Below, piece after piece: positions 3,117 through 32,125 of a stretch of 32,125 nt of DNA. Below the pieces are notes generated by a model that had not been told where the DNA came from, made no database searches, and worked only from the letters and a program-made list of their open reading frames with translations. The position numbers and the translations under genes are program-made. Origin of the DNA: a bacterium (lineage in GTDB: Bacteria; Babelota; Babeliae; Babelales; GCA-2401785); assembly GCA_030629865.1 (NCBI GenBank), contig DAOVOC010000002.1:1-32125 (forward strand), in the 5' to 3' direction. Position 1 is the first letter of the stretch. Every line of letters starts with the position of its first letter.

Positions 3117-3139
3117 GAATTAAAGAATTGGTGGGGAGT

Positions 3140-7915: not shown

Positions 7916-7929
7916 GAGGAGGGCTTGAT

Positions 7930-8025
7930 GTGAGAATGTTTAAACAGCCCGGAATGACGATTGAGAAAATTGCTAAAAATGAAATAGACATTGAAAACCT
8001 TTTCTTAAATAGAAAGGGTGAATAG
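7930..8025 (+). CDS. Possible 31-codon upstream small ORF translationally coupled to the next giant gene (speculative)
   Basis: AGGAGG at 7917-7922 is followed 7 nt later by GTG 7930. The frame reads VRMFKQPGMTIEKIAKNEIDIENLFLNRKGE. Its TAG (8023-8025) overlaps the GTG start at 8025 (TAGTG). There is no homology evidence. Confidence 0.2.
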   Translation: MRMFKQPGMTIEKIAKNEIDIENLFLNRKGE

Positions 8026-11000
8026 TGAAGCTTAAATTATTTGTCATCCCACTTCTAATTCCCAGTTTTTTAAATGCTACAGTGGCGGACCATGGATTTG
8101 CGGTAATCGAGCGATTGCGCAACAGTACAACATATCCAGTCCAAGTTAGCACGAAAAAAACTGTTCATGACCGGCTGCCTATAGAGTCAGTTGTTCGCAT
8201 AAAGTCGCGCAAGCCAGAATATGGTGAAGATGGTCGCTACTATGCTCTGCGCCAGGATGGTGGCCGCTATATTTTGCGCTCTGATGCAATCGATTCGTCT
8301 GATCCTGCAACCGAATTTATTGTGTATCGTCATCTTGATAAAGATCTAAACGATTGGCTGGGATTTTCTTCATTTGCTGCAAATAGACAGATGATGCGTG
8401 CAACAAAAACTCAGTCGGTTCAGTTTTTTGGTAAAGACTTTGAAAATGAAGAGTCGATAGGTGCTCACTGGAAAATTTCTGGAAGCAACTTGATTGGGTG
8501 TCATCTGCAAAGTCGTTTAACAAAGGGCTTTTTGAGCGCGCGTAGCTTGGATGATGCTCGCCTGGATATTGCAAAATATGTTCGACCAGAGATGCCGAAA
8601 ATAAAGTTTTTGGACAGTAAAAGTTTTTCTAAAGATAAGCCACGTTACAAAAGTTACGTAAAAGAGCTTAAAAAAGATGTTTTTCTATCTCTTGGTGATT
8701 TGTCTGTTCTTGCGCGCAATCCATATGAGCCTTGGTTTACCTTCAAGAAATTTAAACCTGGCTTTTTTAAAATGGGTTTTTCTGATGCAAAGGCAACGGT
8801 AAAAATAAGAAAGAAATCCAATCCTTTTTCTGTTCATGAAATGCTTGCACTTATAAATCATACTAGGCGGTACATTTTAGAAAAACCAACGCAGGTAGTA
8901 AGTACAGTTGAAGGATTTGGCAAAGAGGCTGAAGAGGCGCGCAAGAGATCATTTCAAGAAAACCATCAACTTTTATATGGAGACAAAATTCGATTTGTTC
9001 ACCATTTTACGTGGCAAAATTTATATGCAAATCGTGACAGGTTCAATCACGAAGGTAGTTCTGAAAATATGATGACTTTCTGTTCTAACGACGATGTGAA
9101 CAGCGAGGATTCTGAGTTTGCTGATTCGTGGTGGATTGTTAAAGGACCGCACAGTGATGACGATCGTTTTAATTGTGCGATTGGGACGCCCGTGGGGAAT
9201 AGTGCAACGATTCGTTTGGAACATGTTATAACGGGGAAAAATTTAAGATGTCAAAAAACCGCGCCACCTAGCGTTATAGTTGGCGGGATTGAAAGACAAA
9301 AACATCGTTATGAAGTTTCTATTGCTGGTAAAGATGGTATTGGAACTTCTTATGATAACTGGACAATTTCATTTCACGATAAAGCTAAGCAGTTCAATTC
9401 TGGACAACTTTTTTTATTAAATCATGTTGCTACAGGAAGTTCTCTTTTTTCTGATAATGAATTTTTTACTTCAAGTGGTAGTTCTACAAATATTGTTGAT
9501 GATAACTCAATGTGGATTGTTGAGCTTACTCTTGGTGTTACAGGAGAGGGCCGACCTGTAAGATTTCGAGATCGAGTTAGATTTAAAAATATGACAACGG
9601 GCCGCTATCTGCACCTGCAGCAGCATGATTCTAATGTTGCGGCAACAGAAGATATACAAAAGGAAGACACTGCAATAATGTGGCGCATTAAAGGAGCACA
9701 CAAAAAAGGTGACAGGTGGAATTGCAGAAATGAACAAGTCGAATCTGGTGCTATAATTCGCTTAGAGAGTTCTTCTAACGGAAAAAATCTTTTTATCGAT
9801 CCTACTTTTGAAAATCCTGGTTTGAAGACGCAGCAAACCATGGGTCCCGGCATTGGAAATGAAAATGACGATTGGGAACTAAAAATAATTGGCAAGAATC
9901 AAACCCTCGTCGATGGCTCCAGAGTTGTTCTTCGTCATGTACAAAGTAGACAAAAAAAAGTAGTGCGAGAGATTGCCGTTAATACATCTGATGAACTTAT
10001 CGCCAAAGAATATATTGAGAAAATTGCTGCAAAGAAACCAGAAAAGCAAAGCATTTTGCAGCGTGTAGCGGCATTGCAGCTCGAAACCGAAGAGACAAAA
10101 CAAATGCGCGAAGAGATTCGCAAGCTTGATGATGAAGATCAAAAAAAACAAGCTGCGCTTCAAAAAAAAGCAAAGGCTAGAGCAGATAAATTAACTGGCG
10201 AAGCAAAAGTGAAAGCTTTAGAAGCGATTCAAGAAATCAAAAAGCCAAAGAGTCCACGTAAAAAAGAGTTAGAAGCAAAATTAACGCAGCATGATCACAA
10301 GCTTTTATGGTTTGTTAGCGATTCTAGCACAAGCCAAGTTTCTGCAAAAGATACTGCATGGACGGGCGTTCCATATGGATCGCCTGCAGAGCAAGGACCA
10401 GATGAGTTGATAGATATAGAGGTTGTGCGTCTTGGCCGTGGTGCCGGCGTTTTGCCTGGCAGAACAGTTGATATCAAGGTTGATTTGCTTACAAAGCCTC
10501 CAACATTTTCGGGATTTGCAATAGAAAAAGTTTTAAATTTTGATTCAAGTTTCCTTCTTAACCTAAATCCGCTTCTAAATAAAGGCGCTGCATGGCTCGA
10601 AAGATCTCTAGACACCCCAGGGCGGGCATCAGTTGCTTTTATGGCGCAGGCGAAAGATAAAGGCGATATTCAGGTGCTATTTGGTAACGAGCTTGTATTG
10701 GATTATACGTGGAAAATTATTATTGGCGCCAACAACAATACCGAAACACAAATTATTCGCAGAAGTTTAAAAGATGGCGAGCCAAAAGATAAAGTTGTTG
10801 CATCTGTGCGTAAAGAGACAAATCCTTTGGCAGCAGCTTCTCCCGGGCGTTTTGTTCCTTACTGGGTAAGTGTTTATGATGGCGAGATTCTTTTAGGTGG
10901 AGGTAACATTATTGGTGAGAGCGTAATTCTTGCCTGGAAAGATGTAGAGCCTCGTAGCAAAGTTTCTCGAATTGGTTTTGGGTCATATAAATCTGCAGTC

Positions 11001-12941
11001 AAATATGCCGGCGTTCAAGTTGGCTCACCTGTTACATTGCAAAAACCAAAAAGAATTTATGTAAAAATTCCTTCTGCCTCTCTAAGTGCTTCTCAAGAAC
11101 CTGTGTGGCAACAGAAGGGGCTGCGCATTCCTGGCAGGGGCAGCGTTAGTTTTTCTGTCAAAGGCAGGTCGGAAGTATTAGTTGTTCTTGGTAATGCCGG
11201 TGGCAGAGCCTCTGGGCGTTATGCTGTTCGGTTTACAAGCCAAAATCACGAACAAAAAGGAAGAGTGTCTTTATTGAAGTTAGATGGGCAAAAAGATGAG
11301 TACACCACTTTAGCTTCAACTCCGTTTGGTATTTCTACTTGGGCATTGCAAGAACAGGAGTGGAAAAGTTTTTGGATAAGTGTGATGGGTGGACGGTTCT
11401 TTATTGGAAATGGTGCAATTGGCGAAAATCTTTTCTTGTATCACTGGGACCCGGCCGCATTTGATGAATTTAGGCAAATTGGCTTGCAAAGTGTTGCTGG
11501 AGAAGCCCAACTAAAAGATATTGTTATTGCCCCCGCAGTAACTGTCGCACTACAACAGGAACAAGAAGAATACGAAACAGGTGCCGCTGCAGCGATGAAA
11601 ACTTACAGAGGCGATCTGCATGTTATCGCCCCGTTTGAATACCATTTTTCGCAAGAGGGACAGGTTGTTAAGTTTGAAGACAAAATTAACAAAAAAACAT
11701 TTTATCCAGGAAAAACGCCGCAGCAGGACGCATGGTATTACTTTATGCTCACCATTGCCAAAGATGGATTCCCCAAACTTGTCTGGTCTCGTCAGCCAGA
11801 AAATCCACAAAAAATTGAAAAGCAAAAGTCGGCATATCTAACGCGAGCTGGTGGTGAAGCATTTTACCAAGCGTCAACTTACACACAAGGTGCTGGTGAA
11901 GTGGCCAGTGTTGTTGGAGCAACGCTGAGTATTGCCCATGCAGAAGTTGGCCTTGCCTTGATGAAAAAAGCAATTACTGATGAGGCTAAGGTTAAATATG
12001 GGTATAGAGATCACACGGCGTACACTTATCTTGATGCAACAAATTACACCAAGATGAGTGATGTTGGCATTCCTCGCGAAGCAAAAAACAATCGAATTAA
12101 AGTTGAAGGACTTCTTGAGCTTGGAAGTAAATGGAAGCCTTCTTCTCAAAAAAAATTAGAGCGACTTATTCCCCATTATTTGCAGACAGTTCTTTTGGTT
12201 AACCATCCGTATGTGGTCAGAAACCCTGTTGTTAAAAATAGTATAATTTCCAACATCGAAACGTTGTATGCCGCTCATAAAGAACTGCATGCTCCGCCCA
12301 AGGATAAATATGATCCCACTTATAAACAGATGATGAACCTTCTTATGCATGCCTACAACAACACATCGCTGACAAGCCCTTATGAAGCAAAAGACCAGCA
12401 AAAACGGCTTACATGGCTAGGGTGGCTTAACGAGTTGTCGCGAGAAATTTTGCAAAAAAATCCGCGCGGGACATTAATGTTGCGTCCAAGTTTTGGTGAA
12501 TATGTGTGGCTTTCAGAAAAGTTTGCTCTTCCTGACAGCGGTTCAGTTTCTTTTGAAGCAAAAGGGGCAAATGATATTATGGTCGGCCTTGCTGCAAGGC
12601 CTCAGCAGATGCGCAATACTTCAAACGATATTTATGAAGTCTCTATTGGTTCTAATAACAATTCAATGACTTCCATTCGTGCTTACAGCTTGGACCGGTC
12701 TGTGGCTCAGACAACAAAGCCAAAAGCGCGCGCCAACAGTTTGGTTATGCAAAAATACTGGATTAGCGTTAACAATGGCAAAATTGTATTTGGTAAAGGA
12801 GAGATGTTAGAAGAAAATAAACTTCTAGAGTGGCAGGATCCTTACCCTGTAACTGGAGTGAGAAATATTGGGCTTAGTTGTTGGGATGTGCCCGTAGAAT
12901 TTCGCAATATCACTACAGGGCAGGCTTTGTCGTTCAAATAA
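8025..12941 (+). CDS. Giant secreted protein, paralogue of 3140-7915: signal peptide, conserved N-terminal domain, two MIR-type beta-trefoils, Lys/Glu coiled-coil insert, three FAMeT-like modules
   Basis: GTG 8025 is preceded by AAGGGTG. MKLKLFVIPLLIPSFLNATVA is signal-peptide-like. The protein is colinear with the previous gene by eye. MIR trefoil 1 lies at about 8971-9455 (LLYGDKIRFVHH; SWWIVKGPH..C.IGTPVGNSATIRLEHVITGKNLRCQ; DNWTISF..LFLLNHVATGSSLFS). MIR trefoil 2 lies at about 9558-9950 (VRFRDRVRFKNMTTGRYLHLQ; IMWRIKGAH..W.C..EQVESGAIIRLESSSNGKNLFID; DDWELKI..GSRVVLRHV). Coiled-coil insert at about 9990-10290. FAMeT-like modules at about 10620-11033, 11134-11540 and 12535-12925. Stop TAA 12939-12941. 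Confidence 0.85.
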   Translation: MKLKLFVIPLLIPSFLNATVADHGFAVIERLRNSTTYPVQVSTKKTVHDRLPIESVVRIKSRKPEYGEDGRYYALRQDGGRYILRSDAIDSSDPATEFIVYRHLDKDLNDWLGFSSFAANRQMMRATKTQSVQFFGKDFENEESIGAHWKISGSNLIGCHLQSRLTKGFLSARSLDDARLDIAKYVRPEMPKIKFLDSKSFSKDKPRYKSYVKELKKDVFLSLGDLSVLARNPYEPWFTFKKFKPGFFKMGFSDAKATVKIRKKSNPFSVHEMLALINHTRRYILEKPTQVVSTVEGFGKEAEEARKRSFQENHQLLYGDKIRFVHHFTWQNLYANRDRFNHEGSSENMMTFCSNDDVNSEDSEFADSWWIVKGPHSDDDRFNCAIGTPVGNSATIRLEHVITGKNLRCQKTAPPSVIVGGIERQKHRYEVSIAGKDGIGTSYDNWTISFHDKAKQFNSGQLFLLNHVATGSSLFSDNEFFTSSGSSTNIVDDNSMWIVELTLGVTGEGRPVRFRDRVRFKNMTTGRYLHLQQHDSNVAATEDIQKEDTAIMWRIKGAHKKGDRWNCRNEQVESGAIIRLESSSNGKNLFIDPTFENPGLKTQQTMGPGIGNENDDWELKIIGKNQTLVDGSRVVLRHVQSRQKKVVREIAVNTSDELIAKEYIEKIAAKKPEKQSILQRVAALQLETEETKQMREEIRKLDDEDQKKQAALQKKAKARADKLTGEAKVKALEAIQEIKKPKSPRKKELEAKLTQHDHKLLWFVSDSSTSQVSAKDTAWTGVPYGSPAEQGPDELIDIEVVRLGRGAGVLPGRTVDIKVDLLTKPPTFSGFAIEKVLNFDSSFLLNLNPLLNKGAAWLERSLDTPGRASVAFMAQAKDKGDIQVLFGNELVLDYTWKIIIGANNNTETQIIRRSLKDGEPKDKVVASVRKETNPLAAASPGRFVPYWVSVYDGEILLGGGNIIGESVILAWKDVEPRSKVSRIGFGSYKSAVKYAGVQVGSPVTLQKPKRIYVKIPSASLSASQEPVWQQKGLRIPGRGSVSFSVKGRSEVLVVLGNAGGRASGRYAVRFTSQNHEQKGRVSLLKLDGQKDEYTTLASTPFGISTWALQEQEWKSFWISVMGGRFFIGNGAIGENLFLYHWDPAAFDEFRQIGLQSVAGEAQLKDIVIAPAVTVALQQEQEEYETGAAAAMKTYRGDLHVIAPFEYHFSQEGQVVKFEDKINKKTFYPGKTPQQDAWYYFMLTIAKDGFPKLVWSRQPENPQKIEKQKSAYLTRAGGEAFYQASTYTQGAGEVASVVGATLSIAHAEVGLALMKKAITDEAKVKYGYRDHTAYTYLDATNYTKMSDVGIPREAKNNRIKVEGLLELGSKWKPSSQKKLERLIPHYLQTVLLVNHPYVVRNPVVKNSIISNIETLYAAHKELHAPPKDKYDPTYKQMMNLLMHAYNNTSLTSPYEAKDQQKRLTWLGWLNELSREILQKNPRGTLMLRPSFGEYVWLSEKFALPDSGSVSFEAKGANDIMVGLAARPQQMRNTSNDIYEVSIGSNNNSMTSIRAYSLDRSVAQTTKPKARANSLVMQKYWISVNNGKIVFGKGEMLEENKLLEWQDPYPVTGVRNIGLSCWDVPVEFRNITTGQALSFK

Positions 12942-13024: not shown

Positions 13025-14995
13025 TTAGCCAAATATCCAGGACCAAAATCCTGGCTTTTCTTGTTTTGCTGCCTCTTGTTTAACTGTAACTGCAATATTT
13101 GTAGAAGGATCTTTAGCGAGTGCCTTCTTGGTGCGAGTTATTTGTGCTCTTTGTGCTTCTGCCTGTTTTTGGGTTACCAGGCGTGCAATTTTAATATCAA
13201 GTCCGTCTTGGCGCGCGGCAACGCGAACAATGCCGTTACATAGTTCTTCAATTCCACGTGCAGAAAAGCCACGAGTTCTTTGGGCAAGTTCTAGATAGAA
13301 CTTGTTAAATCCAACTGGGATTGCAACATCTCGTTTTTCAGCGGCTTTTCTTAGATACATTTCAATAAGTTGTTCTCGTTCTGGTAGTTCTGGAAGTCCA
13401 ATTTCAAATTGGTGACCAGAAGTTCTGTCAAACACGGCGCTGTCGAGTTGTTCTGGATGGTTGGTGGCCATAATAAACATAAATCCATCGTTGGAAGGCG
13501 CAGGCACAGCTGCTAAAAATGCTTCTGTTAATGCGCGAGTTAGCGATGTTGCTTCTGTGCCATATCGAGCTGCAAAAATACGTTCTGCTTCGTCAATAAA
13601 TATAATTACGCGTTTTTTACCCTTGCGTGCGCGCCTTCTTGTGTAGTCCATAAGTTCCGTAAAGCTTTTTGCAGCATTGTGTGTTGTCATTTGAGTAAAA
13701 CGAGAACCAGAGGTAAAAAAGAATTCAACGTTTTTGTCCACAGTGTGCATGCGTTTTGCCATGCCTTTACCAAAGAACGATTTTCCTGTTCCTGGAGGAC
13801 CATGGAGTAAAATGTTGTACATTTCGCCAAGTGTGGAAATTTCTTCGATAGTTCCTTCTAGCTGACCCTTGAGTTTTGGAGAAATAACCATCTCGCTCAA
13901 ATCGCGGCATTCATCGAGTTTTATTGGGTCCAGAACTGCAGGGCGGCCAAATTGTTTTACAGCCCATTTGTAGAAAAGAATGCTTGATACAATAAAACCG
14001 CTTCCAATGACGGTGTATAATCCCAAGGAAAGCATTTTTTTTCTAAAGGATGTGGTTTGGGCTTCTTCTATAGATTTAACTGCTCCGACTCTTCCATTAA
14101 GAGCGTCAGTAATGGCTTGTTCGCTTGTCGCTTTTTGCCCTTCAGTACTTAATAGCCTTTTTCTTTTTGCCTCTTCCTCGGTCTCAAGTTGCCGTCTTTC
14201 TAGTTCTTTCTTTGTCAATTTAGTTTGGTGATCTGAATCAGTAAGCTCTTCTTGCCTTTGTGTTTGGGCTTGGGATTTAGCAAGAATTGCTTCGGTGTTT
14301 TTTTGGGACATTGAACTTATAAAAGTTGAAACAGCTTTTTTTGCTTTAGTCCAATTTTCAGGAGCTGAAACTGCCTTTTTTTGCGGGTGACTTCCTGTTA
14401 TGACTGTTTGCCCTGCAAGAAATGCTTTTAAATAGAAAGAAAATTTGTCGGTAGCGGTCGATGATCTTGGACTCATTAAGCTGAGATTTTTTTGAGGTTT
14501 ATTGCTTGTCTCAAATGTAGTAAGGTTTGTTTCTAGTAAAAGTATCGGTCGATCTAAAACTTTAGTTTTAAATTCTGATTGCCAATATTTTTTTGTATGC
14601 TGCATTGTTTTTTTGTCAGAATGTTGCCAGCCACCAGCCAGCCATGCGGTTTCAGCGCTTTTCAGAAGATTCTCAAATGCTTTTTTTAGGCTTTCCTTTT
14701 TTGTTTTTTCTAATTTTTGCGCAACTTCAACGATTGTTGGTTCCCATAGGGGTGACACCGGAAAAGATTGTGTTAGGGAATTTTTTTTACCTTTACCTTT
14801 AGTTGGTAAGTTGCCTACGGTAGGAACTCTTGATCTTGATCTCGATTTTCTTAGATTTGGTTTCCTTGATGGTGATCTTGGTTTTTCTGTTCCCAAAACT
14901 GTCGTTGTTACACCAAAGCCTACAAAAAGCACAAAAAGGGTGGCGAAAAGCCTGCTAGAAAAGAAATTTTTGATTTTAAACATTTTTGTGTTCAT
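13025..14995 (-). CDS. Membrane-anchored AAA+ ATPase with N-terminal signal anchor, coiled coil, central TM and C-terminal AAA module; ATAD3-like
   Basis: ATG 14995 is preceded by AGGGAAAAACA. N-terminal hydrophobic segment [20 protein letters not shown]. Coiled coil [29 protein letters not shown]. Central TM [22 protein letters not shown]. Walker A GPPGTGKS, Walker B IIFIDEAE, sensor-1 region [11 protein letters not shown], Arg finger region AVFDR. Several stretches recall ATAD3 from memory: [44 protein letters not shown]. Stop TAA 13025-13027. Confidence 0.8.
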   Translation of the reverse strand: [656 protein letters not shown]

Positions 14996-15284
14996 TGTTT
15001 TTCCCTATTAATATTTTGCCTAATTTCTTTGTTTATCACTTTTAGTGGTGTGCTACTACCCCATGGCACTGGCCAGCTGGCAACATATGCAGTGGTGTTT
15101 TACATATGTTTGTAGTGTTTTTACCAGCCTTCAGATTACGGGCTGTGCAGCTCGAGTCAAATTGAAACATTTTTTGTACAAAAAAGTGCTTTTTATGGGG
15201 TTTTGCTTTTTGGGCAGGTGGAAAAAAAAGATCTGTGGTGTAAGCTGTTTTGACATTATATTGGCCTCTAGAAGCGTGGTAAGA

Positions 15285-16337
15285 ATGAAAAAGCTTTGTT
15301 TTTTAACCATTGGGTTGTTTTTTGCAGTGATGCCGAAATTGGCATTTTTAGCAGAAAACACCCCAAAACCTGAAAAATGGCCCCAAATTTATATTGACCA
15401 CACTGGGCAAGATTATTCAAAGATTGTTTTTGCAGCCAAATTTGATTCTTCAGAAGAAAAAAAAAGTTTTTTTAAAAGTTTCTTTGAATTTTTTAAGGAA
15501 CGTAGTGAGCAGGAAAAAGCGGCAAAGTTGCTTAAAAGGGCAGATGACCTTGATCAAAAGAATAAAAAAAACAAAAAGCGTCTACGTTTGGTAGAAAAAG
15601 CCTTAGAAAAAAGACAAGGCGTATTGAAAGATGAGATAGATGCGAAAAATGATATTGTTTTTCTAAGAAAGCTTGCTAAGGCAATGGTCTATTGCGAGCC
15701 CAAAGTAATTAAGCGTTATGGAAATAATATGAATGGGCCATTAGGATATTTAAAGGATTGGAATTTTGTTTTAAATACTATTCCTGGGTTTTCATCTTTT
15801 AGACTGAAGTTTAATTACCGACTTTGTTGTGAAAAGAATATTGAAGAACTTGCATGGGAGTACCATTGGGACGATACAAGACAAGCTGTTAAATGGTGGC
15901 TGAGCGAATTGAATGCATCGAAGTTTGCGAGTGTCAGAAGGCGCGTGAAGACGCTTTTGGAGGATGGAGGCACCGCTAATCCGGTCACTAAAAAGTTTTT
16001 GCAAAACCTTTGGGACAAAGAATTTAAAAATAAATGGAACTTTTCTCCTCTTGTCCCAGCTAATTTGTGTGGATATTCAGCCGCTATTGTGGGCATTGCT
16101 ACTTTTATTGCAGCTTACAGAAGGGCCAAGAATAATAAATTGTTCTTCAAGCGTTCAAAAAAGAAGAACTCTCATTTTAAGATGGCGCTAAAGCATCTAT
16201 TTCTTTTTCCAGAAGCGTTTTGTCTAAAAGAAAGTAAGGCGGCAATGTTTACATGGCTTTTGTGTGGTGCATGGATTGCGGGCAAATTGCCTCCTTTAAA
16301 TAAAACGTTTTGGAATCGAGTGGTAGAACTTGGTTAA
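15285..16337 (+). CDS. Exported/membrane protein of unknown function, tandem paralogue A (signal peptide, charged helical region, conserved 2-TM C-terminus)
   Basis: The internal ATG 15285 gives MKKLCFLTIGLFFAVMPKLAFLAEN, a signal-peptide-like start that matches the N-terminus of the next gene. The upstream 80 codons of the ORF-track call are Cys/Phe-rich with no counterpart in the paralogue. The C-terminal block WNFSPLVPANLCGYSAAIVGIATFIAAY...FKMALKHLFLFPEAF..FTWLLCGAWIAGKLPPLNKTFWN is shared with 16360-17349. Confidence 0.75.
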   Translation: MKKLCFLTIGLFFAVMPKLAFLAENTPKPEKWPQIYIDHTGQDYSKIVFAAKFDSSEEKKSFFKSFFEFFKERSEQEKAAKLLKRADDLDQKNKKNKKRLRLVEKALEKRQGVLKDEIDAKNDIVFLRKLAKAMVYCEPKVIKRYGNNMNGPLGYLKDWNFVLNTIPGFSSFRLKFNYRLCCEKNIEELAWEYHWDDTRQAVKWWLSELNASKFASVRRRVKTLLEDGGTANPVTKKFLQNLWDKEFKNKWNFSPLVPANLCGYSAAIVGIATFIAAYRRAKNNKLFFKRSKKKNSHFKMALKHLFLFPEAFCLKESKAAMFTWLLCGAWIAGKLPPLNKTFWNRVVELG

Positions 16338-16359
16338 TATTTATAAAAATACGGCGGCC

Positions 16360-17349
16360 ATGAAAAAAAAATACTTTTTTCTTATGTCTTTGTTTTTGTT
16401 TGCATTGCCCAAAATGGCTTTTTTGGCCGAAAGTGGTGAAGAAGTAGTTGAGTCCATGATTATTAATCATAGGCATAGTGATTATGCAGATGTTTTTGCT
16501 GGATCAAATAAACCCTCGGTTACTCTAAAAACGCCTCGTGATATATCAAAAGCTGGAGATAGATTGGAAAAAATTATTAAAAGCAACATGAAACGGCAAA
16601 AGATGAACTCTGTTGTTAAAAGACAGCTTGCATTAGCATTGCCGCTTTATAAGGAGAGTTTAAACGATTCTTGTGGCTGCTTTTTTAAACCTGATGCTGA
16701 TATTGTTGAACCTCTTCAAAGAATCTTTGATCCCAATGATAGGAAAACTCTTAGATTGCATTATCAGCTAGTTGATGAAAAAAATATTGAAGAGCTTGCG
16801 TGGGAAAATTTTTGGCCAGAAACAAAGCCACTTGTTAAAGATTGGCTTGGTCGGCTGACTACCGAAGAGTTGAAAAAGATAAGAGAAAAAACCGTAAAGA
16901 TTGCTTCTAAAAATTCACATAGTGTGTCTAAAAAACTTTTACAAACACTTTTGGATAATGAAGCTTTACAAGAAAACTTAGATAAAAACTTTGCTGGTGA
17001 GGGGGCTGAAAAAGAAACAGAAAAAGTTAAATCTGAGAGTGATTGGAACTTTTCACCACTTGTTCCTGCAAATTTTTGTGGATATTCAGTCGCTGTTGTT
17101 GGCATGTTCACATTTTTATCTGCCTACAACCGGGCAAAAAATGAAATATCTTTTATTCAGCGGTACCAAAAAACAGTTTCACCTTTTAAAATGGCGCTCA
17201 AACATTTGTTCCTTTTCCCCGAAACATTTTCTATGCAAGAGAGCAAAGGAGCAATTCTTACATGGCTGTTGTGCGCGGCCTGGATTGCTGGTAAGGTGCC
17301 CCCTTTAAATAAAACCTTTTGGAATCAAGCCGTAGAGCTTCCTTCTTAA
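16360..17349 (+). CDS. Exported/membrane protein of unknown function, tandem paralogue B
   Basis: ATG 16360 gives MKKKYFFLMSLFLFALPKMAFLAES. It shares NIEELAWE..W, WNFSPLVPANFCGYSVAVVGMFTFLSAY and FKMALKHLFLFPETF...LTWLLCAAWIAGKVPPLNKTFWN with the preceding gene. The N-terminal two thirds are strongly diverged. Confidence 0.75.
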   Translation: MKKKYFFLMSLFLFALPKMAFLAESGEEVVESMIINHRHSDYADVFAGSNKPSVTLKTPRDISKAGDRLEKIIKSNMKRQKMNSVVKRQLALALPLYKESLNDSCGCFFKPDADIVEPLQRIFDPNDRKTLRLHYQLVDEKNIEELAWENFWPETKPLVKDWLGRLTTEELKKIREKTVKIASKNSHSVSKKLLQTLLDNEALQENLDKNFAGEGAEKETEKVKSESDWNFSPLVPANFCGYSVAVVGMFTFLSAYNRAKNEISFIQRYQKTVSPFKMALKHLFLFPETFSMQESKGAILTWLLCAAWIAGKVPPLNKTFWNQAVELPS

Positions 17350-17463: not shown

Positions 17464-19437
17464 ATGTGTAAAAAATATCTGATCCTTTTGGGAATTGCAT
17501 TTTTTGTATCGACTTTAGCCTTACCGTTTGAAAATCTTCCCGAAATTCCCGTTATAGACAGAGTTCCATCTGGTGGACTCAGCCTTGGCGAACCAGATGT
17601 TTCCGGTGCTGCCACGCTAGATTTAGATGAATTTATGAAGTCGGAAAAAATGGCTCCTTTGCCTGGCGACAAGGCAATTGATGAAGAAGAGCAGGAAAGT
17701 GATATTAAAGAGTTGGAAAAGCTTCTGGAGGAAGGTGGCGAGGTTGCCGATAAAAAAACGGATGAACCATCTAAGCCAACGGTGCCTAAAACTACTGGTG
17801 ATAAGACAGAAGCAGGTTCTGAACTTATAACCTTTGATGAGACAGATGAGATTGTGGAAGAAACACCAAGGGTTTCTCAAAAAACAGAAGATGAAAGTAA
17901 AAAAGAAGGTGATACAGGAGTTCAGACAGAGGTTGTAGAGTTTGGAGATGCAGCCGATGAGGAAGTTTCTTATGAAACCTCAGGCGAAGATGATACTGAT
18001 GTTGTTCCTGATGCAACAGAATCAAGCGGGATGTCACTTACACAGGGGTTAGCTCTTGGCGCGGGAATAGGTGTTGGTGCATTAGGGCTTGCCACTGTCG
18101 CAGGCAAAGGAAAACTAGCACGGCGAATACGCAGCTGGCCATTGGGGCGTGATATTACGGCCTTTACTGAATTGCGAGATCGGCTAGAAACTGCTTTGCA
18201 AGATTTGCCTGAAGACGATCCAAATCGAAAGCTTTTAGAACCTGTGTTGGAAAAAACAAGAGCTGTAATCGATGTAGATGATTCTGTTAAAGCAACTTAT
18301 TCAAAAAGATCTTGGATGTTTGATGACAGAATTTATCAACGAGAAAGTGCTTTTGGTGCTTCAAGCGCTGAATTTTTAAAAGAATATTCCAAATTTCTGT
18401 CTACTCGTTCAGAGCAAGCTTCAAAGGGTGAAGATATCCCAGACTCAATCAAAAAGGTACTAAATTATTTTGAATCAGATTTTCCAAAGACAAGATCTGC
18501 AGAGGCTGCAAAGAGAGCAAAAATTGCCCGCTCTAAATTAACAAGGCGCAAAATTCGACTTCATGTTGATCCTGCTGATATTGAAAAAATTACTGCTGAA
18601 GAGGCTGCTAAAGCTGGTGGTAGTGTTGATAGAATATTAAAAGAAACAATAAAAGATATCAGCGGCCATCTTTTTTCAGAAAAAACAGAAGAAAAGTACA
18701 AGGAGTGGCTGGACGCTGAAGAAGAAATGAATAAAAAATTTAAGGAGTTTGCTGAGACTGAAGATATCGCAAAAATAAGAGAAATAAAGATTGCTCGAGA
18801 TAAACTTTTGGCAGCAAAAGGTCCGAAAATAGACAGGAAAAGAAAAGAGATTGGTGAACTTGAAGTAATTTTAAAAATGTTACGCGACGAAGAGATGGAT
18901 GTTGGTAAGAATATGTATGGTGTTTTAGAAAGAGAATTTGCCGCTATTAGAACAGAAACTGTTCAAAGTATTTTGGATATTTCAAAAGTTCCTGATGAAG
19001 TTCTCAAAGAAAAAGCGAAAACTTTTTTTGCAATACGCAGGTCAGTTGCTGATGATATTGGAAAAGAGGGAAAAAAAATAAACGAAATTTATGAAAATAT
19101 AATTGCGTTGATGCCGCAAGAGAGGGTAGTAGATGAGCCTGAAAAAAAGAAGCTTGTGGGAAGTGCTAAAGAAATTTTAGAAAGATCTAAGGAAGCCAGA
19201 AAAGACAGAACCCATGGGATTGAAAGAATTATATCTTTGGCTGCTAAAGAGCCTGTGGTTTCTGGAGAATCTTTTAAAGTTGTTTCACCTGAGGCGGAAA
19301 TAGGAAAAATTTCTGTAGGAGAAAAACCTGCAAAAACCTTAAAAAAAGATAGTCGTGGTTTTTTTGATAAAATTTTTAGAAGAAAAACAACCTTTACCTC
19401 TACTTACGCCATAAAACCAAGCGGAAAGGTTAAGTAG
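17464..19437 (+). CDS. Membrane protein of unknown function: signal peptide, acidic region, glycine-zipper TM, long charged helical tail
   Basis: ATG 17464 is preceded by GAGGGAG and gives MCKKYLILLGIAFFVSTLALPFE. An Asp/Glu-rich region of about 170 aa follows. TM GLALGAGIGVGALGLATVAG at 18045-18105. A Lys/Glu/Arg-rich region of about 450 aa follows. The TAG stop (19435-19437) abuts the next ATG. Confidence 0.8.
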   Translation: MCKKYLILLGIAFFVSTLALPFENLPEIPVIDRVPSGGLSLGEPDVSGAATLDLDEFMKSEKMAPLPGDKAIDEEEQESDIKELEKLLEEGGEVADKKTDEPSKPTVPKTTGDKTEAGSELITFDETDEIVEETPRVSQKTEDESKKEGDTGVQTEVVEFGDAADEEVSYETSGEDDTDVVPDATESSGMSLTQGLALGAGIGVGALGLATVAGKGKLARRIRSWPLGRDITAFTELRDRLETALQDLPEDDPNRKLLEPVLEKTRAVIDVDDSVKATYSKRSWMFDDRIYQRESAFGASSAEFLKEYSKFLSTRSEQASKGEDIPDSIKKVLNYFESDFPKTRSAEAAKRAKIARSKLTRRKIRLHVDPADIEKITAEEAAKAGGSVDRILKETIKDISGHLFSEKTEEKYKEWLDAEEEMNKKFKEFAETEDIAKIREIKIARDKLLAAKGPKIDRKRKEIGELEVILKMLRDEEMDVGKNMYGVLEREFAAIRTETVQSILDISKVPDEVLKEKAKTFFAIRRSVADDIGKEGKKINEIYENIIALMPQERVVDEPEKKKLVGSAKEILERSKEARKDRTHGIERIISLAAKEPVVSGESFKVVSPEAEIGKISVGEKPAKTLKKDSRGFFDKIFRRKTTFTSTYAIKPSGKVK

Positions 19438-22416
19438 ATGAATGCAATAAAAAGGCATGTTTTTTTGAGCTTTTTTGTTTTGTGTTCTTGTCTAACCACT
19501 TTTTTATCTTCTCAAAATGCCGCACAAAACGTGCAAAGTGAGATTGCTTTTCTCATAGGTGCTGAAAACCAATCTGACGCGGTTGAAGCGAGCTTTGAAG
19601 GTGGTGGCGATTTCTTTGTGCCAGAAGATTTTACTGAAGAAGAAATTCAAAAAATGTCTGATGCTACAGAGACAGAGGATGAATATACCTCTGATGAAGA
19701 AGAGGCCGAGCCAGATGATGTTATAGAAACTGAATTTTTGGGCGCAGAGGAAACTGGTGAAGATGTCGAATTTTTAGGCCCCTACACCCCTTCTGGTGAA
19801 GAGATGTCGCCAGAAGAATTGATGATAGAGGCTGGCGAGGAAGGTTCTGGCCTTGGCGTTCTCGGCACCATTGGAATTGGTGCTGGCGCGGGCCTTGCGA
19901 TTGCCGGTGGTGTTTTGGTTGCACAGCATGTGAACGCTAAGAAAAAGCTAAAGCGTGCTTCAATAGATGTTTCAAAGCTTATCGAGCAATTTGAAAAAAC
20001 TGGTGATGAGGAGGGCCTAAAAAAACTTAAAAGTGCTGTTGAAACCTGGGAAAGTGACTATCAAAAAGACAAAGGTACTAGGCCGAGAGCATTAAGACTA
20101 AGAATGAGAGAAGTTTATTTTCTGAAATTTGCCGAGACAGTTAAAACTATTTTTACAGAGCGTTCAACAGCTCTTCCTGAAGGGCCTGCAAAAAAAGCTG
20201 CGCAAAAGGCGGTTGCATCAATTGAAGGAAAAGGCCTTATTAGCGATAGAGTAAAAACAATACGTAAAAAACATAAAAGACCTCTTAAAGCTTATGAAAA
20301 CGTTGTTGTAGAAAAAACTTATACAAAAGCAAAAGAGGTTTTAAAAGTTCCTGAGCCTCCGTCTGAAAAAGAAAAACAATTAAAGAGCTTTTTACGGTTT
20401 AATGATTTGCTTGGTGAAGTTGAAAAAGGAACAAAAAGAATTGGGGATATTGATATTTTTAGAATGCTCAAGAGTGTTTATGGAGAGGGCCCTGGTACAA
20501 AAGAGCTTAGAATATTTAGTAGATTAGTTGGCGTAGCAGAAAAACGTGCTTATATAGTTGCTCTTAAATCTAGTTTTGAAGATAGAATCAAAAGATTAAG
20601 CGCTACAAGCGCTAGTGAGAAAACTCAAATAAAAAAAATTGCCCCAAAAAAAGCTAAGCCTTCAGCACCTTCTCGAAAAGCTCCAATATTTATAAAAATT
20701 CCACAAAAAATGTTACCTGCCGAAAAAGAAAAACGAGCAAAGCAGCTGGCCAAAGATCTTGGAAAAACTAAATTTGAAGCAGAAAAAATGGTTGAAGATC
20801 GGCAGGTTGAAATAAATAAGCGTGCGACTGCAATGGTTAATGGTTTTTCTAGTAAGGAAGGGATGCAAGTTGATTCAGACCTTTTATTCTTGAAAGGGAA
20901 ATCAGATAAGCAGCGTGATACCGAAACATTAATGCTTTCTGATAAGCAAAGAGAAGCGGTAAGCATCGAAGAAGAAGCGGCTCGTAGAGTTTTTGATCAG
21001 CTTCTAAAAGAAAGAAAAAAACTATTTGCGCAAAGTGTTTGGGGCCGTGATCAGCCTCCTCGAAGGTTGGAGGCATTAGAGCCATTTTTTACTGAAAAAC
21101 GTCAGATCAAGATGCAAAAGGCTACAGATAGAAGTTTTCTTGGTGCGGTTGGGCAAAAATTTGTGTGGGAAATTAAGCGCACTAAGTTGATGAGAAAGTT
21201 TGATGAAAAAAGAAGTGAACTTAGAACATCTCAGACGGAAGATGCCAGGAGTGCCATTAAGAAAGAAATGAGAGAAATCGCCGAAAAAATGAAGCTTCCA
21301 GTTGTCGAGCGTGTTAAAAAGGACGCTGCTGCTGTCCGAGAGACTACTAAAAAAAGTGCAATTGGAGTTGGCAAAGTTGCGGCTATTCCCGTTGTGGTTG
21401 CTGGTAAAATGGGTGTTAGAGCCATTGGAGCTGTAGGGATTGGGGCATATAAAGGATTAAAGTTTGTGGCCGAAGGGGCGGGAGAGGGCGCTAGAAAAGT
21501 TGTTCGCGGAGTTAAGAAAGTTGGCCGAGCCCTTTTTGCACCACAAGCTCGAATCGATATTAAGGGAAGTCTTAAACCTCTTATTTTGCGGACTGCACAA
21601 GAGAGCCAAGACCTTAATGCAAAAAGAATTGTTGCAGATATTGAAAAAGGCTTTGTTAGTACTGGTGATATTGAACGTGTAAAAACCTTTCAGCAGATAT
21701 TGTTAGATGTTGCTGGGCAAGAAAAACTTTCTACTAACGACAAAGCTGGTTTAATTAGGTTTTCGCAATATCTAGAAGCAAATATTGTGCTGAAAGACCG
21801 GATGCGGCAAATGGCGCAAGATAAAATATATGGCTTACAAAGTAATGAAGCTGCAAGAAAGCAATGGGAAAAAGTTAGAGATAATTTGAAAAATCCTAAT
21901 TTAACGCTTGAAAAGTTAATAAAACGATCAGATTCGGCATCTGTTAAAGCTATTGAACTTATGGTTAGTAAGCTTAAGATTGGTGACTTTAAGATTAAAA
22001 CTGCCCTAGAGCAGTCGTTACGATTACGTGATGGGCAAATAAGAACTAAAGCTTATAAGCAATTAAAAAAACAGAGTTTAAAAGATCTTAAAAAGACGAA
22101 ACAAGTATTGTCAGAAGCAGGACAAGAAGAATTTATTAAGCAGCAGGAACTAGGGTTGGAAAAAAGCAGGAGAGAATCCGCTCCTCTTGTGAAAGTGCAG
22201 CGGAAAGTAAGCGAGGGTTTGGCGAAGCCTTTGAGCGAGCAAGAGGCAATTGAAAGAGTTATAAAGCTAAGTGAGAGCGATAAAAAACCGCCTAAATCCG
22301 AAGCAAGACTTCATGCAGAAGCAGCAAGAAGAATACAGAAAAGAAAGGCAAAAGAAAAGAGGAAAATGGAGAAAGCAAAGAGAAAAGAAAGCAAAGCTAA
22401 GAAGTTGAAGAAATAA
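19438..22416 (+). CDS. Membrane protein of unknown function: signal peptide, acidic region, glycine-zipper TM, ~830-aa Lys/Glu-rich tail with a poly-basic end
   Basis: ATG 19438 lies directly after the previous stop, with GGAAAGG upstream. MNAIKRHVFLSFFVLCSCLTTFLSSQNA is signal-peptide-like. Acidic region (..EDEYTSDEEEAEPDD..). TM GLGVLGTIGIGAGAGLAIAGGVLVA at 19843-19926. A second Gly/Ala/Val-rich segment AIGVGKVAAIPVVVAGKMGVRAIGAVGIGAY lies at about 21360-21450. The C-terminus is KRKAKEKRKMEKAKRKESKAKKLKK. Confidence 0.8.
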   Translation: MNAIKRHVFLSFFVLCSCLTTFLSSQNAAQNVQSEIAFLIGAENQSDAVEASFEGGGDFFVPEDFTEEEIQKMSDATETEDEYTSDEEEAEPDDVIETEFLGAEETGEDVEFLGPYTPSGEEMSPEELMIEAGEEGSGLGVLGTIGIGAGAGLAIAGGVLVAQHVNAKKKLKRASIDVSKLIEQFEKTGDEEGLKKLKSAVETWESDYQKDKGTRPRALRLRMREVYFLKFAETVKTIFTERSTALPEGPAKKAAQKAVASIEGKGLISDRVKTIRKKHKRPLKAYENVVVEKTYTKAKEVLKVPEPPSEKEKQLKSFLRFNDLLGEVEKGTKRIGDIDIFRMLKSVYGEGPGTKELRIFSRLVGVAEKRAYIVALKSSFEDRIKRLSATSASEKTQIKKIAPKKAKPSAPSRKAPIFIKIPQKMLPAEKEKRAKQLAKDLGKTKFEAEKMVEDRQVEINKRATAMVNGFSSKEGMQVDSDLLFLKGKSDKQRDTETLMLSDKQREAVSIEEEAARRVFDQLLKERKKLFAQSVWGRDQPPRRLEALEPFFTEKRQIKMQKATDRSFLGAVGQKFVWEIKRTKLMRKFDEKRSELRTSQTEDARSAIKKEMREIAEKMKLPVVERVKKDAAAVRETTKKSAIGVGKVAAIPVVVAGKMGVRAIGAVGIGAYKGLKFVAEGAGEGARKVVRGVKKVGRALFAPQARIDIKGSLKPLILRTAQESQDLNAKRIVADIEKGFVSTGDIERVKTFQQILLDVAGQEKLSTNDKAGLIRFSQYLEANIVLKDRMRQMAQDKIYGLQSNEAARKQWEKVRDNLKNPNLTLEKLIKRSDSASVKAIELMVSKLKIGDFKIKTALEQSLRLRDGQIRTKAYKQLKKQSLKDLKKTKQVLSEAGQEEFIKQQELGLEKSRRESAPLVKVQRKVSEGLAKPLSEQEAIERVIKLSESDKKPPKSEARLHAEAARRIQKRKAKEKRKMEKAKRKESKAKKLKK

Positions 22417-22452
22417 AAAGGGTTGAGTTTGAGAATGCTGGGGGGCAGGGTT

Positions 22453-23256
22453 ATGGACAGGCGGAAAAGATCCCGGATCAAGTCCGGGATGACAATTTTG
22501 GGGTCCGGGATGACATTTCTTTTAATATCACTTTTTTTATTTTTCACTATGCCATGTTGTGCACTTTTGATAGATGAAGCTGCGCTTTTGGCCAAGCTTC
22601 CTCCATCAGTTGCAGAGGAAGTTCAGGCGAGTGCAGTTGAAGGCCGAGAAGCTTTGGCAGAAGATGCAGCAATGGCTGCAACAGGCGAAACTGCCGCTGT
22701 GGTAGAAGCTGGTGACAAAGATCTTTCCTCGATGTCTATTGATGAACTTGCAAAAACCGCCCAAGACGAAATGCCTTCTGGTGAAGAAACTATCAAAGAC
22801 ATTGCGATTGAAGATTCTGATTTTGTTGCAGGTAGCGAGGCTGACGAGCTTGCTAACATGTCTATGGATGATTTGCGCAATGAGGCTCTTCTCGAATCTG
22901 GAATGGATCCCGGAATTTTAGGTACTGGACTAGGTTCAACTGCCGATTTAGCTTTAATGGGTGCTGGTGGTGCCGGAGCAATTGGAATGGTTGGAATGCT
23001 AAGAGAAGTTGTTGGTCGTGTTATGGATGGGCAGCAACTTAAAATGATGATGCAGCGAGGGAACATGATGGCAGGCCAATATGCTATGGATCGTGCGATG
23101 GGTGGTGGAATGATGATGGGGCCTGGCATGAGCGGAGGCATGATGCACCCTGGCATGGGCAGCATGGGCGGTATGGATATGATGGGACGTATGAGTGGTG
23201 TTGATGTAGGTAGATATCGTCCTGGCGGTGGAACGTTTGGCAGAATGCGGATGTGA
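22453..23256 (+). CDS. Membrane protein of unknown function: basic N-region plus hydrophobic signal, acidic region, glycine-zipper segment, Met/Gly-rich C-terminal tail
   Basis: The start is uncertain: TTG 22423, or ATG 22435, 22453, 22489 or 22510. 22453 gives MDRRKRSRIKSG..MTFLLISLFLFFTMPCCALL, a positively charged n-region followed by a hydrophobic core. Acidic region follows. GTGLGSTADLALMGAGGAGAIGMVGML at 22911-23000. Tail MMMQRGNMMAGQYAMDRAMGGGMMMGPGMSGGMMHPGMGSMGGMDMMGRMSG. Stop TGA 23254-23256. Confidence 0.7.
   Translation: MDRRKRSRIKSGMTILGSGMTFLLISLFLFFTMPCCALLIDEAALLAKLPPSVAEEVQASAVEGREALAEDAAMAATGETAAVVEAGDKDLSSMSIDELAKTAQDEMPSGEETIKDIAIEDSDFVAGSEADELANMSMDDLRNEALLESGMDPGILGTGLGSTADLALMGAGGAGAIGMVGMLREVVGRVMDGQQLKMMMQRGNMMAGQYAMDRAMGGGMMMGPGMSGGMMHPGMGSMGGMDMMGRMSGVDVGRYRPGGGTFGRMRM
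22470..22515 (+). repeat. REP-like palindromic repeat copy A plus an adjacent half copy
   Basis: A-TCCCGGA-tcaag-TCCGGGA-T hairpin (22470-22490) followed by GACAATTTTG. The half copy TCCGGGATGACA repeats at 22504-22515. Confidence 0.65.
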
Positions 23257-30880: not shown

Positions 30881-32122
30881 ATGAAAATTTCAAGAATCCG
30901 TGGAACGGAAGACAAAATTGATTTAACATTCAAAAATTTTATTTGCGAAAAAGTGCGCACTTTACTTTCAAATTACAATTTTTCAGAAATCGAGACACCG
31001 ATAATAGAACCAGAAGAACTAATTTGCCGCTCTTTAGGTCAAGAAACTGACGTTGTTACAAAAGAAATGTTTCGTGTAACGGCCACCGGGAACGAAAAAA
31101 TGTGTCTGCGGCCAGAAGCAACTGCTTCAACTACGCGGGCGTATCTTGAAAATAAAATTGAAGAAAAGCCCTGGAATGTGTTTTCGATCGGCCCAATGTT
31201 TCGGCATGAACGCCCTCAAAAAGGTCGTTGGAGGCAGTTTGACCAAATTAATATAGAAACTATTAATGCTAGATCGATAGGGCATGATGCTCAGTTTTTA
31301 GCAATGTTGGAACGATTGTTTTCAGAAATGTTCAAACTTTCTGACTATGTTTTAGCAATCAACTTTTTGGGAACACTCGAAGAACGCAGAGCTTATCGTG
31401 AAAATCTAAAAATATTTCTTGAAAAGCACAAAGAAATTATTTGTGAAACATGCTTGGTGCGTAAAGATAAAAATCCGCTTCGGGTACTTGATTGCAAATC
31501 TCCAATTTGCCAAAAGATTTATGAAAATGCTCCGGTTTTGACAGATCAGCTGGGCGCAGAATCCCAAAAACAATGGGATACATTCAAAGAATATCTGAAA
31601 ATTCTTTCCATAAGCTTTATCGAAGATCCAAAGCTTGTTCGTGGGCTTGATTATTACGAAGGCGTTGTGTTCGAATTTTCGTCACCGCATCTTGGAGCTC
31701 AAAGTTCTTTTGCAGGTGGTGGGCGGTATGAGCTTGCGACCGTTTTTGAGGCAAAAGAGCCTGTTCCGTCATTGGGAGTTGGTATTGGATTTGGCCGTCT
31801 GAGAATGTTGATTGAACAGAATGCAAAACTTCTTTCTATCCCACAAAAGCCTGCTTTAAATCTTATTATTCCGATGACAGAAGAGCAGCAACCAGTTGCA
31901 TTGTTGCTTGCCGAATCGCTTAGGCACCATGGCAAATGTGTGCAGATTCTCTTTGACTACAGTAAGCTGCAAAAGATGATGAAAAAGGCAAATAAAATGG
32001 GTGCTAAGCATGTTCTCATTATAGGCGAAGATGAGCAGGCTTTTGGAAATGTTACTGTTAAAGACATGGTGAGCGGTGCAAATCAAACTGTTGCGCAAAG
32101 TGAAGCATTTAAGGTTTTGTAA
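30881..32122 (+). CDS. hisS: Histidine--tRNA ligase
   Basis: ATG lies 11 nt after the tkt stop, with AAAGGG upstream. RGTED near the N-terminus, motif 2 region MFRHERPQKGRWRQFDQINIE, GGGRYE and motif 3 GVGIGFGRL, plus a C-terminal anticodon-binding domain (KMGAKHVLIIGEDE). Stop TAA 32120-32122. Confidence 0.93.
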   Translation: MKISRIRGTEDKIDLTFKNFICEKVRTLLSNYNFSEIETPIIEPEELICRSLGQETDVVTKEMFRVTATGNEKMCLRPEATASTTRAYLENKIEEKPWNVFSIGPMFRHERPQKGRWRQFDQINIETINARSIGHDAQFLAMLERLFSEMFKLSDYVLAINFLGTLEERRAYRENLKIFLEKHKEIICETCLVRKDKNPLRVLDCKSPICQKIYENAPVLTDQLGAESQKQWDTFKEYLKILSISFIEDPKLVRGLDYYEGVVFEFSSPHLGAQSSFAGGGRYELATVFEAKEPVPSLGVGIGFGRLRMLIEQNAKLLSIPQKPALNLIIPMTEEQQPVALLLAESLRHHGKCVQILFDYSKLQKMMKKANKMGAKHVLIIGEDEQAFGNVTVKDMVSGANQTVAQSEAFKVL

Positions 32123-32125
32123 TAA

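Follow-up and report, generated by a model that had tools for sequence, protein, structure and literature searches.

Three adjacent genes of a Dependentiae bacterium share a rare layout of signal, acidic stretch, glycine-rich segment and tail

A layout common to genes A, B and C

The window analysed here is a complete metagenomic contig of 32,125 bp (DAOVOC010000002.1), the forward strand of which carries three consecutive genes, referred to as A (17464–19437), B (19438–22416) and C (22453–23256), whose products each consist of an N-terminal hydrophobic signal, an acidic stretch, a Gly-rich hydrophobic segment and a tail. An initial annotation of the same DNA had proposed that the three genes follow one blueprint, and this is confirmed: a single rare architecture is shared by the members of a tightly packed, same-strand run, with acidic stretches of 110–168 amino acids (aa), tails of the composition described, and Gly-rich segments lying within a few codons of the positions first assigned to them. 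The close packing was also correctly described, with no gap between A and B and less than 100 nucleotides (nt) between B and C. The stop codon of A (TAG, 19435–19437) abuts the ATG of B at 19438, and 36 nt separate the stop codon of B (22416) from the possible start of C at 22453. A Shine-Dalgarno-like GGAAAGG motif is located inside the end of A, about 10 nt before the ATG of B, and GAGGGAG is present upstream of the ATG of A; the translation of A and B may be coupled. Scans for promoters and terminators returned no more matches than did shuffled sequence.

Each of the three proteins begins with a Sec-type signal, in which a basic n-region is followed by a hydrophobic core of 16–19 aa, with Kyte–Doolittle (KD19) values of 1.89, 1.68 and 2.56 for A, B and C, respectively. 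The KD, Hessa and Wimley–White (WW) octanol values used throughout were entered by hand after the published tables. The acidic stretches comprise 168, 110 and 114 aa with net charges of −35, −36 and −23 and an isoelectric point (pI) of 4.05. In the charge-hydropathy plot all three lie on the side of disorder, and those of A and B are mostly unstructured in low-confidence, single-sequence AlphaFold2 (AF2) models. The Gly-rich segments are each 32–33% Gly, with Ala, Ile, Leu and Val placed between the glycines.

The rarity of this arrangement is evident from a scan of 1.5 Mb, made up of the window and 82 fetched loci, in which 1238 open reading frames (ORFs) of at least 200 aa were screened for four features together: a hydrophobic segment at the N-terminus, a stretch of 100 aa with a net charge at or below −15, another hydrophobic segment further on, and no fewer than 60 aa of tail. 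The full layout was found in three of the 1238 ORFs, namely A, B and C, all of them adjacent; the observation is thus real and far from chance. Hydrophobic segments with at least five Gly in 19 residues are themselves uncommon (52 of 1696 in the scan, or 3%), and in the window and six Dependentiae-type loci taken together there are four such segments, all of them inside the window, in A, B, C and g1, the first gene of the contig.

Features of the individual proteins

Gene A is a long ORF encoding 657 aa. Its signal or anchor, MCKKYLILLGIAFFVSTLALPF (17464–17535), has a basic MCKK n-region and a TLA/LP small-residue site that is read from the sequence. The acidic disordered region (17536–18039; 168 aa, net −35) contains one short AF2 helix (residues 74–92) with a predicted local distance difference test (pLDDT) score of 51–64, the remainder scoring about 27–40. 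The Gly-rich segment TQGLALGAGIGVGALGLATVAG (18040–18105) has a KD19 of 1.79, a Hessa sum of 2.1 and a WW-octanol value of +2.1, and is followed by KGKLARRIR. The Lys/Glu-rich tail (18106–19434) comprises 443 aa with a net charge of +13 and a pI of 9.3, and is nearly all helix by DSSP of the AF2 model, at low confidence. Close to its end lies an amphipathic helix, SRGFFDKIFRRK (19351–19386; AF2 helix 630–639; RGFFDKIFRRK), which may bind the membrane and, as a lead only, resembles the membrane-targeting helix of MinD and FtsA.

Gene B encodes 992 aa. Its N-terminal signal or anchor (19438–19515, KD19 1.68) leads into an acidic disordered region (19516–19845; 110 aa, net −36) that contains a single Lys or Arg. 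The Gly-rich segment SGLGVLGTIGIGAGAGLAIAGGVLVAQ (19846–19926) has a KD19 of 1.86, a Hessa sum of 2.0 and a WW-octanol value of +2.7; it is helical in the low-confidence AF2 model and is followed by HVNAKKKLKR. The Lys-rich helical tail (19927–22413) extends over 829 aa with a net charge of +87 and a pI of 10.2, and ends in a polybasic C-terminus (22279–22413) with 22 Lys or Arg in 45 aa. Within the tail, residues 640–700 (21355–21537) form a second Gly/Val/Ala-rich stretch, IGVGKVAAIPVVVAGKMGVRAIGAVGIGAYKG..., which is interrupted by Lys and Arg. It was rejected as a transmembrane (TM) segment, since a KD19 of 1.61 is accompanied by a Hessa sum of 6.6 and a WW-octanol value of +4.5, and may instead be a peripheral membrane-binding element. 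The tails of both A and B are predicted to be helical and contain three to four times more i/i+4 pairs of opposite charge than alanyl-tRNA synthetase (AlaRS).

Gene C encodes 267 aa when counted from 22453, although its start is uncertain, the ORF spanning 22423–23256 and later ATG codons at 22489 and 22510 also being possible. The signal or signal-anchor (22453–22575; KD19 2.56, Hessa −2.4) combines a basic n-region with 19 aa of very high hydrophobicity, and is followed by an acidic Ala/Glu/Asp-rich region (22576–22917; 114 aa, net −23). The Gly-rich segment LGTGLGSTADLALMGAGGAGAIGMVGML (22918–23001) contains an Asp and has a KD19 of 1.43, a Hessa sum of 4.6 and a WW-octanol value of +3.4. 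The tail MGGGMMMGPGMSGGMMHPGMGSMGGMDMMG (23002–23253) is 26% Met and 26% Gly. Antisense ORFs overlap C.

The putative 5′ end of C also contains a 34-nt stretch, GATCCCGGATCAAGTCCGGGATGACAATTTTGGG (22469–22502), that includes a 7-bp hairpin, and its presence there is a reason why the true start of C is uncertain. Copies of TCCGGGATGACA are also found at 22483 and 22504. The 34-nt element matches many unrelated contigs, often at their extreme ends, and its summed depth reaches approximately 900x in a cold-seep run and 310x in a sediment run, compared with 6–8x and 1–3x elsewhere in the window. Its appearance is that of a widespread short repeat or a piece of an RNA gene. An origin as the 3′ fragment of a tRNA is unsupported by ARAGORN, by Rfam or by the 94 tRNA genes that the fetched loci contain, and two pattern matches in viral contigs proved to be unrelated coding repeats.

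Relatedness of the three genes and searches for homologues

Comparison of A, B and C with each other by BLASTP and phmmer yields only a weak collinear match, which runs across the module formed by the acidic stretch and the Gly-rich segment. In compartment-wise shuffling, this module scores z values of 2.8 (A–B), 2.1 (A–C) and 2.3 (B–C), with 5–8 of 300 shuffles reaching the observed score, and the tails score a z of 0.05; the earlier description of the three sequences as not alignable is therefore essentially right. In the juxtamembrane window only the pair B–C stands out (z 2.3; 46 of 2000 shuffles), and B and C have the motifs MSx[DE][DE]L..EA and G[VI]LGT in common. A repeat search at the DNA level gave no sign that A, B and C are duplicates of one another, and brought up only the gene pair g5/g6 that precedes them. 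Common descent of the N-terminal module is plausible from these comparisons, and is favoured because the neighbouring pairs g2/g3 and g5/g6 are clear tandem duplicates.

Relatives in other genomes were sought on a large scale. For B, an indexed search of 5.8 billion proteins returned no homologue, an exhaustive HMMER search of 1.84 billion representatives returned only a 253-aa fragment of B itself at 100% identity, and a look-up of the exact protein returned no record. The indexed search of the same 5.8 billion proteins with A returned A itself only. By these searches, A and B are ORFans. Scans of A, B and C against Pfam, NCBIfam and PHROG gave no match other than a sub-threshold hit to DUF3347 in A and noise from subunit G of an Na+/H+ antiporter in C. 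Sequence searches of the PDB with the tails of A and B and with C returned nothing meaningful, viral-contig scans with A, B and C returned nothing, and tblastn of all window proteins against 80 loci anchored on AlaRS likewise returned nothing. For C, the Pfam, NCBIfam, PHROG, PDB and viral-contig searches were thus all negative. A phage lysis cassette of the holin/spanin type was considered and rejected, as neither the protein sizes nor the PHROG results fit.

Properties of the Gly-rich segments

The hydrophobicity of the Gly-rich segments was compared with that of the permease encoded in the window, whose 14 TM windows served as the positive control, and with that of AlaRS, transketolase and histidyl-tRNA synthetase (HisRS), the negative controls. 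The permease TMs span KD values of 1.55–2.42, Hessa sums of −0.6 to 6.7 and WW-octanol values of −0.9 to −12.6, whereas the best soluble windows reach KD values of 0.96–1.49 and the soluble proteins have Hessa sums of 6.3 to 10. The segments of A and B fall within the permease ranges on both KD and Hessa, beyond all soluble control windows, and the segment of C, with its Asp, fails on all three scales. The assignment of all three segments as TM helices in the initial annotation therefore holds for A and B by KD and Hessa, does not hold for them by WW-octanol, and does not hold for C on any scale.

The spacing of the glycines is largely what their abundance predicts. With (L−4)*p^2 and p of approximately 0.32, about 1.8, 2.5 and 2.5 GxxxG motifs are expected in the segments of A, B and C, and three, two and one are observed, respectively; the counts match the Gly content, so that zipper periodicity does not rise above the compositional expectation, and the GxxxG spacing to which attention had been drawn is that of chance at 32% Gly. 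A strict glycine-zipper pattern, (G/A/S)xxxGxxxG or GxxxGxxx(G/S/T), is present in A (two matches) and absent from B, which is mostly GxGxGxG, and from C. One match to the strict pattern occurs in g1. None of the Pfam families Gly-zipper_Omp, Gly-zipper_OmpA, Gly-zipper_YMGG and Rick_17kDa_Anti matches A, B, C or g1 (hmmscan of Pfam-A, E ≤ 0.1).

In A and B, the 50 aa preceding the Gly-rich segment contain 12–13 Asp or Glu and no Lys or Arg, and a Lys/Arg cluster follows immediately (KGKLARRIR in A, NAKKKLKR in B). This asymmetry fits the topology that had been predicted, with acidic parts outside and basic tails inside, for A and B; across the segment of C, the positive-inside bias is weak. 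Sorting signals of the LPXTG, PEP-CTERM and GlyGly-CTERM types were rejected for the three proteins, since 84–829 residues follow the Gly-rich segment and the signature motif is absent.

Similar segments had been reported in two neighbouring genes. The one in g1 exists (2931–2993, forward strand) and is a convincing C-terminal TM, with a KD19 of 1.95 and a WW-octanol value of −5.7. Its flanks mirror those of A and B, a Lys-rich region of 820 aa (net +64) preceding it and an acidic tail of 40 aa following it. The full-length orthologue of g1 at locus L082 (described below) has a signal peptide, conserves this TM and contains no other. As g1 shows, Gly-rich anchors are a conserved feature of this gene cluster. 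The segment in g2 exists as well (6443–6487) and was rejected as a TM, having a KD of 1.27, a Glu at the corresponding place in g3 and in the homologue P0004, and FA domains on both sides.

Host and neighbouring genes

AlaRS, encoded directly downstream of A–C, is 45–52% identical to the AlaRS of metagenome-assembled genomes (MAGs) of Babeliales/TM6, and a search with g3 led to orthologues in the Candidatus Dependentiae MAG GCA_042576345.1 (locus L082), where the identities to the window genes are 69% for g2, 54–57% for g3, 65% for transketolase and 73% for HisRS. From this kinship of sequences the host, a bacterium of intracellular type from cold-seep sediment, is an uncultured, TM6/Babeliales-like member of the phylum Dependentiae. 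All members of this phylum that have been studied live as parasites that depend on protist hosts, and the secretomes predicted for Dependentiae are very large and rich in ORFans; in the cultured Chromulinavorax destructans, 44% of the coding sequences carry signal peptides, a set enriched in ORFans (PMC6561590).

DNA of the window is present in one cold-seep metagenome, where 89% of the sampled words occur at 6–8x, and the same sequence is found at 1–3x in one further sediment metagenome. In independent Logan assemblies of two metagenomes (X1 and X2), stretches of this part of the window recur nearly unchanged, with portions of all three genes among them. Public runs contained the same organism only, with no diverged strain from which the ratio of nonsynonymous to synonymous substitution (dN/dS) could be calculated, and among them no RNA run carrying the A/B/C locus was found.

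The genes are arranged in the order g1, g2, g3, an AAA+ gene on the minus strand, g5, g6, A, B, C, AlaRS, permease, transketolase and HisRS. Genes g1–g3 (108–12941) encode giant, signal-bearing paralogues with MIR and Methyltransf_FA (PF12248) domains of eukaryotic type, as detected with Pfam. The first of them (g1, 108–3116, forward strand) has lost its 5′ part at the contig start, and g2 and g3, of about 1600 aa, have signal peptides together with MIR and Methyltransf_FA domains. The family is kept at 42–69% identity in two other Dependentiae-type assemblies. At L082, the closest relative, g1–g3 lie beside transketolase and HisRS, the contig stopping inside the g3 orthologue. In the more distant L081 (42% identity), a single g3-like gene stands amid housekeeping genes and nothing like A, B or C adjoins it.

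The AAA+ gene (13025–14995, minus strand) encodes a membrane-anchored protein in which an N-terminal hydrophobic segment, a Lys/Ser/Thr-rich region of approximately 280 aa and a second TM precede an AAA domain that is Cdc48/AFG2/FtsH-like and has no protease domain. Directly upstream of A, g5 and g6 (15045–17349, forward strand) encode tandem paralogous membrane proteins with a signal and C-terminal TMs, which are 38% identical overall and 70% identical over the C-terminal 100 aa, the part that contains WNFSPLVPAN, FKMALKHLFLFPE and PPLNKTFWN. No family of Pfam, NCBIfam or PHROG matches them, and scans of metagenome contigs anchored on the g5/g6 family yielded no relatives or syntenic loci.

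Interpretation

Taken as a whole, the reading that we tentatively favour takes A, B and C for envelope proteins of an uncultured member of Dependentiae that are targeted by Sec, restricted to their lineage and fast-evolving; the lack of detectable relatives is what makes fast-evolving envelope proteins probable. An N-terminal module consisting of signal, polyanionic disordered stretch and Gly-rich segment would most likely have been duplicated in tandem, with unrelated tails either grafted onto it or diverged. A and B would then most likely be single-pass inner-membrane proteins inserted by Sec with the N-terminus outside and the C-terminus inside, or, if the signal is uncleaved, two-TM hairpins of unchanged orientation. 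Each would display a floppy polyanionic brush in the periplasm and a long, helical, polycationic scaffold in the cytoplasm, and the C-terminal amphipathic helix of A may fold back onto the membrane. Such proteins would act as membrane tethers or spacers rather than as enzymes or channels. C appears to have kept the signal and acidic module, and since its Gly-rich segment is too polar to serve as an anchor, it is more likely to be fully exported together with its Met/Gly-rich tail.

Several observations weigh against this reading. On the WW-octanol scale, the segments of A (+2.1), B (+2.7) and C (+3.4) are all worse than the soluble controls, and a simple Hessa sum of approximately +2 kcal/mol for A and B implies inefficient stop-transfer. 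AF2 did not render the segment of A helical, at a confidence too low for this to count. In g1 and its orthologue, the Lys-rich region lies on the exported side if the signal is used, counter to the positive-inside rule, so that a basic region is not automatically cytoplasmic in this gene cluster. Finally, with 5–8 of 300 and 46 of 2000 shuffles reaching the score, homology among the three proteins is statistically insecure, and their resemblance may reflect convergence.

The same marginal hydrophobicity, positive on WW-octanol and near +2 on the Hessa sum, lends some credit to an alternative that we regard as unlikely, in which all three proteins are exported in full, as effectors or surface proteins. 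The sub-threshold Gly-rich segments would escape stop-transfer and later insert into a host or outer membrane, self-associate or aggregate, and the Lys-rich tails would act outside the bacterium. The TM segments of secreted effectors typically lie just under the threshold for inner-membrane targeting (PMC6110835), and in the Cdz bacteriocins aggregation at the surface and attack on membranes are mediated by Gly-zipper segments (PMC5380434). The setting would also suit such a role, as g1 and its orthologue combine a signal peptide with an exported-side, Lys-rich region of 800 aa, the neighbours g1–g3 are giant signal-bearing proteins with the eukaryote-type MIR and Methyltransf_FA domains, and Dependentiae are host-dependent and have very large, ORFan-rich predicted secretomes (PMC6561590). 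However, the change from acidic to basic residues at the segment resembles that of a stop-transfer anchor, and the KD and Hessa values lie inside the range of the bona fide TMs of the window. In addition, no dedicated secretion-system genes or chaperones were seen in the window by Pfam and NCBIfam scans, and the effector studies concern substrates of the secretion systems of types III and IV (T3SS and T4SS), which have no Sec signals.

The model put forward in the initial annotation, in which A, B, C and perhaps g1 co-assemble through glycine-zipper TM helices into an oligomer or channel, appears improbable. Each segment is indeed about one-third Gly with small or aliphatic residues between, A and g1 have the strict GxxxGxxxG-type pattern, B and C have G[VI]LGT in common, and the genes are adjacent with A and B possibly coupled in translation. 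Yet the GxxxG counts equal the compositional expectation, the strict pattern is missing from B, which is mainly GxGxG, and from C, whose Asp-containing segment is not TM-like, no Pfam Gly-zipper family matches at E ≤ 0.1, and tails of 440–830 aa are atypical of small, channel-forming zipper proteins.

That the common layout is a coincidence of low-complexity sequence, or that C is mis-called, with no biology in common, is barely credible: although the sequences have a biased composition and cannot be aligned with confidence, and C has an uncertain start, a widespread 34-nt repeat in its 5′ end and overlapping antisense ORFs, ORFs of 657 and 992 aa are not a product of chance in DNA of 40% GC, the layout is missing from the remaining 1235 ORFs scanned, parts of all three genes are near-identical in the independent assemblies, and the shared strand, tight spacing and Shine-Dalgarno-like motifs speak for real genes.

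The charges of the four proteins with Gly-rich segments also raise a more speculative idea, which we consider highly improbable, of a single envelope assembly in which A, B, C and g1 are matched by opposite charge. In such an assembly, the polyanionic ectodomains (net −23 to −36) contributed by A, B and C would bind a polycationic region of 800 aa (net +64) in the exported part of g1, the giant surface protein with MIR and FA domains. The unusually Gly-rich anchors would hold all four proteins, and the polybasic tails of A and B, in the cytoplasm, would provide a link to the cell interior. In a variant of this idea, the Gly-rich segments may be host-membrane insertion elements of Sec-exported effectors. 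Were the charge-complementary assembly true, Dependentiae would have a trans-envelope or host-contact scaffold of a kind not described before.

Comparison with known systems

The closest parallels are the signal-bearing ORFans of Dependentiae described for Chromulinavorax destructans, which likewise have a Sec-type signal and no recognisable family and belong to the same phylum, and like which A, B and C sit among secreted proteins with eukaryote-like domains; a layout of acidic stretch, Gly-rich segment and giant charged tail, or a tandem trio, is not described there (PMC6561590). Transmembrane glycine zippers, in so far as Kim et al. 2005 is cited in PMC5380434, are likewise Gly-rich with small or aliphatic spacing, and A and g1 follow their GxxxGxxxG-type pattern. 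Unlike these, B and C show no strict pattern, GxxxG is no more frequent than composition dictates, and the TM status of the segments is equivocal.

The Cdz bacteriocins CdzC and CdzD are likewise encoded by adjacent genes, exported, and endowed with extended regions of Gly and small aliphatic residues, but are toxins of 5–10 kDa with an adjacent type I secretion system (T1SS) and an immunity gene (PMC5380434). A, B and C, by contrast, comprise 267–992 aa and have Sec-type signals. Pfam and NCBIfam detected neither ATP-binding cassette (ABC) nor membrane fusion protein (MFP) domains of a T1SS in the neighbours g1–g6 and AAA, and there is no immunity gene nearby. Effectors of intracellular pathogens that contain transmembrane domains resemble A, B and C in the moderate hydrophobicity of their segments and in the host dependence of the bacterium (PMC6110835). 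Such effectors use T3SS or T4SS signals and chaperones, whereas A, B and C have N-terminal Sec signals and no such machinery is visible in the window. The tail of C is similar to the Met-rich periplasmic copper proteins CueO, PcoA and CopA (PMC3847284) in composition only, with Met alongside Gly, His and Asp, and C matches no multicopper oxidase, CopC/PcoC or CusF in Pfam, NCBIfam or the PDB.

In terms of the order of its elements, the layout corresponds to that of type I bitopic proteins. In the procoat of filamentous phages and in APP, a signal is followed by an acidic region, a Gly-containing helix and a cluster of Lys and Arg. This is an analogy and not homology, the scale and the tails being entirely different. 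A, B and C would be bitopic or exported envelope proteins rather than a new system.

The trio is a real and statistically striking architectural repeat of ORFans, in a phylum where signal-bearing ORFans are common. Dependentiae, which parasitise protists, are ubiquitous and have hardly been cultured. Should the layout reflect function, an architectural class would become recognisable within their huge "dark" secretome, and envelope or host-contact proteins could be sought by architecture where sequence searches fail. The three adjacent genes also provide a natural example in which composition and element order have been kept and alignable sequence lost, which is useful for thinking about the origin of ORFans by duplication and runaway divergence.

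Ends of the contig

Logan contigs provided no extension of the window at either end. The truncation of g1 is visible in the alignment of residues 725–759 of its 1547-aa orthologue to positions 3–107 of the window. At L082 (786–9976), transketolase and HisRS, the last genes of the window, lie immediately upstream of the g1 orthologue, so that the two ends of the window are neighbours in this relative. The ends (1–107 and 32120–32125) thus reflect either a rearrangement or two sites that are close together in the genome.

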